Part shown: positions 19,270-50,421 of the stretch, in pieces
How the letters are laid out: each line of letters opens with the position of its first letter
Position numbering within the stretch: position 1 is the stretch's first letter
The notes under the pieces: model-generated
The model's input: the letters and a program-made list of their open reading frames with translations, nothing else
Told to the model about the DNA's origin: nothing
The model's database searches: none
Made by a program: the position numbers and the translations under genes
Source: Escherichia coli
GTDB lineage: Bacteria; Pseudomonadota; Gammaproteobacteria; Enterobacterales; Enterobacteriaceae
Assembly (NCBI RefSeq): GCF_050920415.1
Contig: NZ_CP169309.1
Direction: 5' to 3' (one strand)
Length of the DNA stretch: 64,000 bases

Positions 19270-20358
19270 TCACGGCAGGCGGTGGCGAGCTTGATAATAA
19301 GCCTGCCAGTGAGCTTCTTTATGTGTAGCGACACGTTGTTCGAAGTAACGGCGCAGACGTGCGCGATCTTCTTCGTTATCTTTGACGATGGTTCCGGCAA
19401 TACAGTCCACCAGGTCGGCTGGCTCCCCCGCGCGATTCGCTAAAAACCAGGCGCGGACGCCCACAGCGTGGGCCACGTTCACGGCTTCAGCGGTGGACAT
19501 AATCGCTGTCAGTGTATCCATTGACGTTTTCTTTTCGCCGTTGGCACGCAGATCGCGGAAGGTGCGTACCAGTAACTCAAGTACCGCGTCAGGCACTTTA
19601 TGCGGAATACCGCTATGGGCCAACAAACGCGCCGAAGCACTGGCGACCAGTTCCAGCTCCTGAGCAAAATCCATAATCGGAAAGACAGTTTCAAAGTCGA
19701 ATCGGCGTTTTAGTGCCGCGCTCATTTCATTAACGCCGCGATCGCGGGTATTGGCGGTGGCAATAATATTAAAGCCTTCCCGCGCATAGAGCTGACTGGC
19801 TTCACCAGTGAGTTCCGGCACCGTCATAACCCTGTCAGAAAGCATACCTAACAGACAGTCTTGTACTTCCAGTGGTGTACGCGTTATCTCTTCAAAACGG
19901 ACAATTTTGCCGTCGCGCATTCCTTGGTAGAGCGGGGCAGGGACCAGCGCTTCCGTTGACGGACCATGATTAATAAGCAGGGCGTAGTTCCAGCCGTACT
20001 TGATTTGATCTTCGGTGGTAGATGCGCCGCCCTGGATAGTTAACCCAGCATCGCCGCTAATAGCGGTTGCCAGTAATTCAGACAGGAGAGATTTTGCGGT
20101 GCCAGGTTCCCCCACCAACATCAAACCGCGCCCGGTAGCAAGAGTGACTAACATGCGTTCGACAGCGGAGGGACTAATCACGACTTTACGGCTGATATTT
20201 TGCGCGCTATCGCCAAGAATAAAAGAACGGGCCGCAGGCAAACTTAACTGCCAACCGGGCGGGCAAGGTGCGTTATCATTTTGCTTTAATTTTGCCAGTT
20301 CATCGGCGTATAACACAGCGGCAGGCGGACGCTGCAGATGATTATTCTGCGGTGACAT
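19270..20358 (-). CDS. yehL: MoxR-like AAA+ ATPase
   Basis: 362 aa; Walker A GEPGTAKS; first gene of the yehLMPQ operon. Confidence 0.85.
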   Translation of the reverse strand: MSPQNNHLQRPPAAVLYADELAKLKQNDNAPCPPGWQLSLPAARSFILGDSAQNISRKVVISPSAVERMLVTLATGRGLMLVGEPGTAKSLLSELLATAISGDAGLTIQGGASTTEDQIKYGWNYALLINHGPSTEALVPAPLYQGMRDGKIVRFEEITRTPLEVQDCLLGMLSDRVMTVPELTGEASQLYAREGFNIIATANTRDRGVNEMSAALKRRFDFETVFPIMDFAQELELVASASARLLAHSGIPHKVPDAVLELLVRTFRDLRANGEKKTSMDTLTAIMSTAEAVNVAHAVGVRAWFLANRAGEPADLVDCIAGTIVKDNEEDRARLRRYFEQRVATHKEAHWQAYYQARHRLP

Positions 20359-20464
20359 ATATTCATCCCTGAAATGTATTAATCAAATAAACGATATTTT
20401 ACGCGCAATAAATGTTTGGCGCATTAGTTGTTTGAGCGGAAAATATCTGGAAAGCAATCACAGT

Positions 20465-20551
20465 AAATAAAAAAACCTGCTGGTGAGGCAGGTTCTTTTA
20501 TTTACTACTTTCAGGCCTAACACCACGGCCTGTGCAACATCGTGTTCCAAC
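20465..20551 (-). ncRNA. orzO: candidate OrzO-like antitoxin sRNA (type I TA)
   Basis: Minus-strand sigma70-like promoter (TTGCAA-N17-TATAAT, -10 at 20563..20558) and minus-strand intrinsic terminator (stem 20474..20494 followed by a U-run in the RNA); the transcript 5' region is complementary (19 of 20 nt) to the zorO 5' UTR at 20699..20718; ends are predicted, not mapped. Confidence 0.45.
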
Positions 20552-20557
20552 GAACGA

Positions 20558-20608
20558 ATTATAACCATCGGTGGACCCCGTTGCAATTAAGATAATGAGA
20601 TTTATAAT
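20558..20608. promoter_or_regulatory. divergent overlapping sigma70 promoters sharing one palindromic -35 hexamer
   Basis: Plus strand: TTGCAA (20581-20586) N16 TATAAT (20603-20608), predicted TSS near 20615 giving a ~175-nt leader to the zorO ATG; minus strand: the same TTGCAA read in reverse, N17, TATAAT (20563..20558). Confidence 0.5.
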
Positions 20609-20789
20609 CCTGACTGTTGGGACGTTGCGCCGGATCGAACCCATTTCAAGTCCTGGCTACCGGACGGGTGGTGCCGCAGGTAGTGCCCTGATCCGGAGTG
20701 CAACATCGTGGTCCAACATACGTAAACCAGTATCGACAGGCAGTGTAAGGGTAAGATGCTGGTGTTGCGCTCCTTAATAAGGAGAGCGG

Positions 20790-20879
20790 ATGGACACGCT
20801 GACACAAAAGTTAACCGTGCTCATTGCCGTACTGGAGTTATTAGTGGCTCTGTTACGGCTGATTGATTTGTTGAAGTAA
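20790..20879 (+). CDS. zorO: type I toxin, 29-aa hydrophobic peptide (ZorO-like)
   Basis: ATG 20790 preceded by GGAGAG SD; translation MDTLTQKLTVLIAVLELLVALLRLIDLLK; stop TAA 20877-20879; missed by the ORF track because shorter than 60 aa; matches my recollection of ZorO from E. coli O157:H7. Confidence 0.7.
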   Translation: MDTLTQKLTVLIAVLELLVALLRLIDLLK

Positions 20880-21138
20880 CGGGCAAATTGAAACGCATCT
20901 AAGGGGGAATACCGTCTCCCTCTTTAATAAAGCTATACTCGTCATAATTCAAGTTGCATGTGCTGCGACTGCGTGTTATTCGGCCCATCCATGGACCTCA
21001 CCCCTTACGGGGCCGCTGCAAGTAGCGTTCAAATCCGCTCCATGCGGATTTGTCGTTCACCCCAGTCACTTACTTTAGTAAGCTCCTGGGGATTCACTCG
21101 CTTATCGCCTTCCTGCAACTTGAATTATTTAGAGTATA

Positions 21139-49147: not shown

Positions 49148-50421
49148 TTAACTTCCCCTTGTGTCAACGCAATATCGCGATCATCGACCTTGATAGCCGT
49201 AATTTCGTTGTCGGATTCGCGGAAAAAAATCATGAACAGCACGGCGATAATGGCAATCATCACCGCGCCGAAAGTCCACATCCCGGACCAGTTGAAAGTC
49301 AGTCCGTTTACCGGTTCCGGATAAGCGAACATCTTTTCCATCATCACACCGCCAAGACGATAGCCGAGCAAACTGCCGAATCCCTGGCAGCAGAGCGTGA
49401 TCAGCCCCTGCGCAGCGGTACGCATATGCACGGGGGCTTTTTTATCGACATAGATGTAAGCGGTAACGTAGTAAAAATCGTAACTTACTCCATGCAGCAA
49501 AATGCCGAGGAACAGTAACGCGTAGGTGAAATATTCATCCGCACTACCGTAAATAAAGAAGCCATAGCGGATCGCAGCGGTGACCAGACCAAGTAATAAT
49601 ACCTTTTTGATACCAAAGCGTTTGGTAAAAAACGGCAATGCCAGCATAAAGAAGATTTCAGAGAACTGGCCGAGCGTCATCCAGCCGGTGGCGTTTTTCA
49701 TGCCGACTTCTGTCAGATAACCGTTGGCAAAGATGTAATAGAACGCCAGTGGCATCGCAAACAGGAATGAACAGAAGAAAAAGACGAGGAAGTTTTTATC
49801 GCGTAGCAGGATCAGCGCATCCAGGCCGAGCATGACTTTAATGTCCATTTTGCCGGTGCTTTTTGGCGGCGTGTCGGGCAGGAAAAACGCAAACACACCG
49901 AGCAGAGCAGAACTTCCGGCGGTAATCAGCAGCGGGATGTTAGTCGGAGAGATATCGGCATAACCCAGCATTTGCGGCAAAAATCCACATGCCAGACCGG
50001 AGGCAATCCAGCCGATAGTGCCCATCACACGAATGCGTGGGAAATCACGCTCCACATCCGGCACGTTGGCAAAAGCGATACTGTTAGTCAGCGCAATGGT
50101 CGGCATATAGGTTAGCGAGTAGGCCAGCAGTAACGGGAAGAACCCGGCAAAAGTGGTCTGTTGCGCAGCGAAATACATCAGCGCCGCACCAGCGAACATC
50201 AATACCGCCAGCACTTTCTGCGCCGAGAAAAAGCGGTCAGTGATGGAGCCAACCAGAATTGGCGACAGGATCGCCGCAATGGCGGTACAGGCATACGACC
50301 AGCCAATTTCTCCGGCACTAAAACCGCTTTTACTTAACCACAACCACAATGGCACAAACCACGCGCCCCAGATAAACCATTCAACAAACATCATGAACGA
50401 CAGCTTTGCTGTTGTTTTCAT
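49144..50421 (-). CDS. yegT: MFS nucleoside:H+ symporter-family transporter
   Basis: 425 aa, multi-TM; first gene of yegTUV. Confidence 0.8.
   Translation of the reverse strand: MKTTAKLSFMMFVEWFIWGAWFVPLWLWLSKSGFSAGEIGWSYACTAIAAILSPILVGSITDRFFSAQKVLAVLMFAGAALMYFAAQQTTFAGFFPLLLAYSLTYMPTIALTNSIAFANVPDVERDFPRIRVMGTIGWIASGLACGFLPQMLGYADISPTNIPLLITAGSSALLGVFAFFLPDTPPKSTGKMDIKVMLGLDALILLRDKNFLVFFFCSFLFAMPLAFYYIFANGYLTEVGMKNATGWMTLGQFSEIFFMLALPFFTKRFGIKKVLLLGLVTAAIRYGFFIYGSADEYFTYALLFLGILLHGVSYDFYYVTAYIYVDKKAPVHMRTAAQGLITLCCQGFGSLLGYRLGGVMMEKMFAYPEPVNGLTFNWSGMWTFGAVMIAIIAVLFMIFFRESDNEITAIKVDDRDIALTQGEVK

Follow-up and report, generated by a model that had tools for sequence, protein, structure and literature searches.

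In a 64,000-nt stretch of Escherichia coli DNA (referred to here as the window), two divergent promoters within a 51-bp core at positions 20558–20608 appear to share one palindromic −35 hexamer, TTGCAA. By its sequence, the locus is the zor/orz type I toxin-antitoxin module of E. coli, which is located between yehL and yehK. We consider it probable that the core is a compact zor/orz control region in which two sigma-70 promoters share TTGCAA and show modest interference that depends on their occupancy. The promoter elements and the transcription starts have already been published (Fozo 2010; Wen 2014; Shore 2024), and the geometry is therefore not a new discovery. The sole new idea is the mutual exclusion of the two polymerases, which is plausible. 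A search by literal phrase matching, in a literature from which older subscription papers were missing, found no statement or test of a shared −35 or of interference at zor/orz, and the transcriptional control of zor/orz is acknowledged as unexplored in the literature.

The zor/orz locus and its alleles

The module is flanked by yehL (19270–20358, minus strand) and yehK/yehI (21139 onward, minus strand). This intergenic placement was confirmed by the ORF list and by the RefSeq annotation of matching genomes, and Fozo et al. (2010) described the locus between the same genes. The antitoxin gene, orz, occupies 20465–20551 on the minus strand and encodes an OrzP-type sRNA of about 85 nt, with its +1 at the G at 20551. 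It gave a full-length match to the Rfam family RF02083 (OrzO-P) from 20544 to 20469 on the minus strand, scoring 98.9 bits where the gathering score is 60. The alignment ends at 20469, and the terminator scan together with an inverted repeat indicated an intrinsic terminator of a long hairpin and a U-run at 20461–20507, placing the 3′ end of the sRNA at about 20465–20469. The divergence of this terminator between the O and P paralogues is 2%. On the plus strand, the zor 5′ UTR extends for 174 nt (20616–20789; +1 at the G at 20616) and contains an AAGGAG ribosome-binding site (RBS) at 20779–20784, that is, +164 to +169. Both the length of the UTR and the position of the RBS match the published numbering, and there are no indels relative to the EDL933 copies. 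The toxin ORF of 29 aa follows at 20790–20879, and its hydrophobic peptide, MDTLTQKLTVLIAVLELLVALLRLIDLLK, is identical to the published ZorO. A putative zor terminator, consisting of a short GC hairpin and a T-rich tail, was called by the terminator scan at 20903–20929. The ORF and the Rfam match agree with the original prediction, in which the plus-strand promoter was assigned to the toxin mRNA and the minus-strand promoter to the antitoxin sRNA. Sequence matching all or part of the locus is present in more than 5,200 of the 5,426 complete E. coli genomes. Annotation of zor and orz was absent from every RefSeq record inspected, including those of EDL933 and MG1655.

The published RNA biology indicates that Orz represses zor post-transcriptionally by pairing with its UTR. 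Wen et al. (2014) demonstrated with zorO/orzO of EDL933 that overproduction of Zor is toxic and that the cognate Orz rescues. In the window, the pairing box is a 20-nt direct repeat formed by the 5′ pairing domain of Orz (20532–20551, minus strand) and its target site inside the zor UTR (20698–20717, plus strand), which lies within the published EAP region (+73 to +102). Pairing involves 19 of the 20 positions, and the duplex consists of 6 and 13 bp around one A·G mismatch at Orz +7 (window 20545 and 20711). The P pair of EDL933 carries the same mismatch, which argues that it is native rather than a sign of decay. The published pairing rule (Wen 2014; Shore 2024) asks for 15 or more contiguous nt, or for 17 or more if a single internal mismatch is present, and the window copy conforms to it.

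EDL933 has two zor/orz copies, whereas the window has a single-copy allele. Its Orz, pairing box and spacers are P-type, yet the ORF encodes ZorO (T3). The O/P naming by protein and by nucleotide is thus in conflict for this allele, since P-type DNA is combined with ZorO (T3) and not with ZorP (S3). The pairing box is the same as that of the yehL-proximal copy of EDL933 (orzP/zorP type), and the orz spacer variant, ACCATCGGTGGACCCCG, was found elsewhere only in two metagenome contigs among the copies that we collected. Between the O and P types, the divergence amounts to 48% in the 5′ half of Orz, 47% in the orz spacer, 25% in the zor spacer, 29–33% in the discriminators and 0% in the hexamers. 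A mosaic was also seen when the window region 20508–20615 was compared with the O copy of EDL933: the pairing box too is among the blocks with 25–48% divergence, and the terminator, hexamers, distal UTR and ORF differ by only 0–4%. This mosaic suggests, from the alignment, that some blocks may have been homogenised or that others may have diversified.

Copies with only part of the module were also observed. The orz-only loci (the yehK-yehL region of MG1655, and positions 2620–2720 of the locus L004) retain the complete zor promoter and about 28 nt of the leader, and the retained promoter points antisense into the 3′ end of yehK. The predicted start of this orphan zor promoter in MG1655 is 2204337-8 on the minus strand. 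It is reported that the zor −10 is intact in 100% of 656 orz-only loci (Shore 2024). The metagenome contig OWIP01028780.1 (reverse strand, 809–1025) contains a zor copy that is homologous to the window only from 20656 onward, near +41 of the leader. This copy is joined to unrelated upstream DNA, and the 1-kb contig has no orz and no native promoter. Between zor and yehK (20934–21138), there is a 25-nt inverted repeat, the arms of which are separated by 155 nt; the deletion in orz-only loci ends at its right arm. The same interval also contains sequence recognisable as an ERIC/IRU-type intergenic repeat.

Geometry, starts and conservation of the promoter core

The core begins with the orz −10 hexamer TATAAT on the minus strand (ATTATA on the plus strand; 20558–20563), located at −12 to −7 of orz. 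It is followed by a G+C-rich orz spacer of 17 bp (20564–20580), by the palindromic hexamer TTGCAA (20581–20586), by a zor spacer of 16 bp that is A+T-rich in P-type copies (20587–20602) and by the zor −10 hexamer TATAAT on the plus strand (20603–20608), at −13 to −8 of zor. Both −10 hexamers were identified by the consensus scan and lie 39 bp apart, so that two divergent −10 hexamers flank one −35-like hexamer at distances within 16–18 bp. All coordinates of the original prediction, which described TTGCAA as its own reverse complement with −10 elements at 16 nt on the plus strand and 17 nt on the minus strand, were right. Each promoter has 10 of the 12 consensus bases: the −10 element is perfect in either case, and TTGCAA has four of the six bases of TTGACA. 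TTGCAA is the sole self-complementary hexamer beginning with TTG and hence presents TTG at positions 1–3 in either orientation.

Between 19500 and 21800, the consensus scan detected exactly two promoter-like sites, one on each strand. In general, consensus scans are prone to false positives, and the arrangement might be a chance juxtaposition of promoter-like hexamers without function. However, plus- and minus-strand candidates using one hexamer were limited to the zor/orz core throughout the 64-kb window at three stringencies. When another 90 kb, from E. coli O157:H7 EDL933, was scanned, the shared-hexamer pairs were the two zor/orz copies only. First-order Markov simulations produced such pairs in 0 of 200 runs at the strict threshold and in 6 of 200 at the relaxed one, and the analytic expectation for the exact ATTATA-N17-TTGCAA-N16-TATAAT pattern is about 8e-6 per 64 kb. 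Both starts have been mapped, and the hexamers are invariant across species. By the expectation, the simulations, the mapped starts and the conservation, a chance origin of the pair was ruled out, and we regard the probability of a functionless juxtaposition as negligible.

Using primer extension, Fozo et al. (2010) mapped the starts of all four RNAs, that is, the two toxin mRNAs and the two sRNAs. Fig. 1A of Wen et al. (2014) draws these starts with boxed predicted −35 and −10 elements for both genes. Transfer of the published UTR and RBS numbering to the window placed the zor +1 at G20616, 8 nt past TATAAT, because the zorO UTR is published as 174 nt with its RBS at +164 to +169. For orz, the published V1 triplet at +9 to +11 is ACG in OrzP and GAA in OrzO. 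The +1 is assigned to G20551, 7 nt past the minus-strand TATAAT, since only that start puts ACG at +9 to +11, and the O-type copy has GAA at the same offset. In addition, a Cappable-seq study of EDL933 (PMC10469882) reported, for EDL933 as well as for MG1655, a start located 194 nt upstream of yehL, counted from its start codon. This position is the predicted orzP +1 (MG1655 NC_000913.3, 2204402; EDL933 NZ_CP008957.1, 2972395). In the EDL933 record NZ_CP008957.1, the transferred starts are 2971721 and 2972330 on the minus strand for zor, and 2971786 and 2972395 on the plus strand for orz. The zor start is thus based on the primer-extension mapping of 2010 and the orz start additionally on Cappable-seq. 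The two starts are 65 bp apart, with TTGCAA at −35 to −30 of each, and both 5′ ends fall 6–9 nt downstream of their −10. Mapped starts had been named beforehand as the observation that could refute the two promoters; the published ones are consistent with both.

As zor and orz are missing from the RefSeq annotations inspected, the orz start is credited to yehL in genome-wide studies of transcription starts. The orz gene is directly upstream of yehL in the same orientation (20358–20551), and its +1 is listed as a yehL start with a 194-nt 'UTR'. It is conceivable that read-through of the Orz terminator extends into yehLMPQ.

The conservation of the core was assessed in 26 copies with 12 distinct 51-nt cores, which were gathered without the promoter as bait. 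The E. coli copies came from a BLAST search with the whole locus, those of other species (two from E. whittamii and one each from Escherichia sp. E1V33 and Escherichia sp. MOD1-EC7003) from a scan for the Orz terminator, and the metagenome copies from a scan for the zor RBS region. One reverse-strand terminator match was spurious, and four non-Escherichia matches of the Orz terminator pattern were unrelated; all were discarded. The three hexamers are invariant in the 26 copies. Variable columns amounted to 22 of 33 in the spacers and 0 of 18 in the hexamers, for which the hypergeometric P of about 1e-6 is an indication only because the columns are phylogenetically non-independent. The sequence of the orz spacer is highly variable at a constant length, and the zor spacer likewise varies in its centre at a constant length. 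Neither spacer contains indels, although the neighbouring Orz body and zor leader do. When the O and P paralogues of O157:H7 are compared, their cores differ at 12 positions, every one of them in a spacer (P = 0.002), and the hexamers stand as islands of 0% divergence inside a tract diverged by 25–48%. The bases of the spacers next to the −10 elements (20564–20567 and 20597–20602) are nearly invariant, with TGGT in orz (G at −14) and GAGATT in zor; the sole exception is the metagenome copy L021, which has ATCA and GATATT.

Shore et al. (2024) listed TTGCAA in 99.4% of 2,439 loci for zor and for orz alike, and TATAAT in 100% and 99.8% of loci (their Table 3). The identical figures of 99.4% imply that one hexamer was scored as the −35 of both genes. 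Since the three hexamers and the two spacer lengths are invariant while the spacer sequence varies, they are under purifying selection. This pattern is as predicted for two working promoters with a shared −35, although it is no strict proof of double use. A conserved TTGCAA would also be expected if only one promoter used it, and a perfect −10 might work without a −35.

The sharing would then be merely apparent, with the other promoter independent of a −35 through its consensus −10. TTGCAA matches TTGACA at just four of six positions, and promoters with a consensus −10 can tolerate poor −35 elements. However, the hexamer is exactly at −35 to −30 of both mapped starts, and the spacer lengths are invariant despite 25–47% substitution and the presence of indels in the adjacent DNA. 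The best alternative orz −35 at 16–18 bp, as read from the sequence, has two of six matches. Use of TTGCAA by one promoter only is therefore improbable in our estimation, and even if it were true, the footprints of polymerases at starts 65 bp apart would still overlap.

It could also be considered that the palindrome and its flank serve mainly as a site for a transcription factor that co-regulates both genes, such as Fur at the spacer and −10 of P-type zor. The 19-mer GATAATGAGATTTATAATC (20591–20609) resembles a Fur box, with 15 of the 19 consensus bases present, and the window contains two such matches where 0.125 would be expected; the only other one with at least 15 of 19 is GATAATGGCAATCATCACC at 49246–49264. 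The Fur-box-like 19-mer overlaps the zor spacer and −10 in P-type copies only. On the other hand, part of the match is due to the TATAAT box itself, and TTGCAA lies outside the 19-mer. The O-type and other variants show 10–12 of 19 matches, and their hexamers are equally conserved. Our literature search found no published Fur link to zor/orz. As the resemblance is confined to the P type, it is treated as a side observation, and we assign a slim probability to the palindrome being such a site.

Proposed docking of polymerase at the shared −35

In the proposed mechanism, the 51-bp core would consist of two ordinary sigma-70 promoters placed back to back, both reading TTGCAA. The minus-strand promoter would give the ~85-nt Orz from 20551, and the plus-strand promoter the zor mRNA from 20616 with its 174-nt UTR. 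Sigma region 4 contacts the double-stranded −35 element through the major groove, close to the middle of the hexamer. Since the dyad of TTGCAA sits at this point, two opposed holoenzymes would need the same groove. By footprint arithmetic, footprints from −55 to +20 would overlap over 46 bp (20561–20606), and each −10 box lies at −52 to −58 of the partner promoter, where alpha-CTD/UP contacts occur. Because just 65 bp separate the starts and sigma region 4 would have to use one set of six base pairs for both, only one docking orientation would be possible at a time, and each initiation event would thus transiently block the partner promoter. Judging from this geometry, the steric exclusion of two holoenzymes at one −35 is plausible. 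We infer that both promoters need the hexamer, as we do their relative strengths and the size of the interference. A change in the −35 would affect toxin and antitoxin together, which would amount to a genetic coupling of the two.

Several features favour orz, including the spacer of 17 bp versus 16 bp, the G at −14 (TGGTTATAAT) and the A+T-rich upstream DNA in P-type copies. The DNA upstream of the zor promoter is G+C-rich, and O-type copies show a weaker upstream A+T bias. Spacer length, G at −14 and UP-like A+T tracts are rules of thumb for estimating promoter strength, and it is by these rules that we rate orz above zor. Accordingly rated, orz is the better-built promoter and a bias toward orz is expected, which fits the need for an excess of antitoxin.

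On/off exclusivity of the two RNAs is not expected. Fozo et al. (2010) detected both RNAs in the same cultures, and this coexistence suggests that the exclusion, if any, is transient. The original prediction proposed that toxin and antitoxin transcription would be mutually exclusive at initiation; exclusion at docking does not imply exclusivity of expression, and both RNAs occur in the same cultures. Warman et al. (2026) reported that, for natural bidirectional promoters with a shared −10, competition is negligible at basal activity and becomes evident when one direction is strongly driven. With its two consensus −10 boxes, zor/orz may sit nearer to the threshold of competition.

Competition for the shared −35 might be stronger than this and form a major regulatory layer, in which anticorrelated initiation sets the toxin:antitoxin ratio or provides a switch or bet-hedging. 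The consensus −10 elements and the optimal orz spacer could make occupancy high, Orz is abundant in exponential phase, and, at symmetric sites, competition is enough for a strong promoter to repress its partner (Warman 2026). Moreover, the 17/16 spacer asymmetry is invariant in the 26 copies, and of the divergent type I loci compared, zor/orz alone has this geometry. On the other hand, competition was absent at basal activity from all five natural shared −10 promoters that were tested (Warman 2026), and the toxin and antitoxin RNAs are present together in cultures. The conservation of the hexamers is explained by two working promoters, and ordinary genes are also 100% conserved (Shore 2024). 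A major role of competition is thus possible but unlikely. Its more specific form is doubtful: initiation would be anticorrelated in single cells, the invariant 17/16-bp asymmetry would hard-wire the antitoxin:toxin ratio, and the core would add a toggle or bet-hedging layer in which whatever disfavours docking toward orz would by itself make the opposite orientation, that of zor, available.

Coupling of the opposite sign is also conceivable. Divergent transcription, or opening at one promoter, could stimulate the other through negative supercoiling or reciprocal stimulation and lead to co-activation. The twin-domain model of supercoiling is established, and co-expression would suit a toxin-antitoxin pair. 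Reciprocal stimulation of divergent starts has been reported for bidirectional promoters (Warman 2020/2021), but in that case the starts share a −10 and are 7–25 bp apart, not 65 bp. The steric overlap at the −35 argues for the opposite effect, and a positive coupling at zor/orz is quite improbable. Modest interference that depends on occupancy remains our preferred reading of the core.

Relation to other systems and implications

The zorO-orzO and zorP-orzP pairs of EDL933 (Fozo 2010; Wen 2014, 2017; Shore 2024) represent the same locus as the window, with the same hexamers, spacings and +1 positions. Among other type I systems, tisB/istR, shoB/ohsC and dinQ/agrB likewise have a divergent sRNA that pairs over about 18–21 nt with the long 5′ UTR of the toxin. 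However, no −35 is common to toxin and antitoxin in these loci, unlike in zor/orz. The published shoB promoter (GTGACC/TAAAAT) and the ohsC +1 are separated by about 143 bp. For tisAB, which is LexA-controlled, no −35 is annotated, and the candidate −35 of dinQ is about 13 bp from that of agrA. A minus-strand candidate at shoB/ohsC overlaps the ohsC −35 by 5 bp; it was rejected as a case of a shared −35, the published shoB promoter being elsewhere. The sibling type I loci have known regulators (LexA, CpxR), and none is known for zor/orz. TTGCAA also occurs at agrA and agrB, the antitoxin sRNAs of dinQ in MG1655, where TTGCAA-N17-TAGCAT/TAGTAT fits the annotated 5′ ends. These hexamers are at 828–833 and 1059–1064 of the MG1655 stretch examined, and no divergent partner promoter was found on them.

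Bidirectional promoters with a shared −10 (Warman 2020/2021, 2026) resemble zor/orz in having a symmetric core element that is read on both strands. In that class, one RNAP binding event excludes the other, and the competition measured depends on promoter activity. The starts there are 7–25 bp apart, whereas zor/orz has a shared −35, separate −10 elements and starts 65 bp apart. The definition of the bidirectional class from the Grainger laboratory (Warman et al.) expressly leaves out separate divergent promoters, and zor/orz, with 65 bp between its starts and 39 bp between its −10 elements, falls outside it. By analogy, zor/orz may nevertheless operate on the same working principle. Divergent sigma-70 promoters are also found at PR/PRM of phage lambda, where a polymerase at one promoter hinders the open complex at the other. 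In lambda, about 82 bp lie between the starts, each promoter has its own −35, two polymerases can occupy the region together and control is by CI/Cro. As the −35 elements are separate in lambda and exactly coincident in zor/orz, lambda is the looser analogue.

Type I systems are normally explained wholly at the RNA level. A toggle or bet-hedging layer, if true, has not been described for any type I system and would lie outside the current 'bidirectional promoter' class. In practical terms, the 51-bp core provides a minimal bidirectional promoter of natural origin. If competition is not measurable at the shared −35, the region would amount to two ordinary constitutive promoters packed closely together. 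If it can be measured, toxin and antitoxin synthesis would also be coupled at the promoter level, and the rules known from shared −10 promoters would be extended to a second class that shares the −35.
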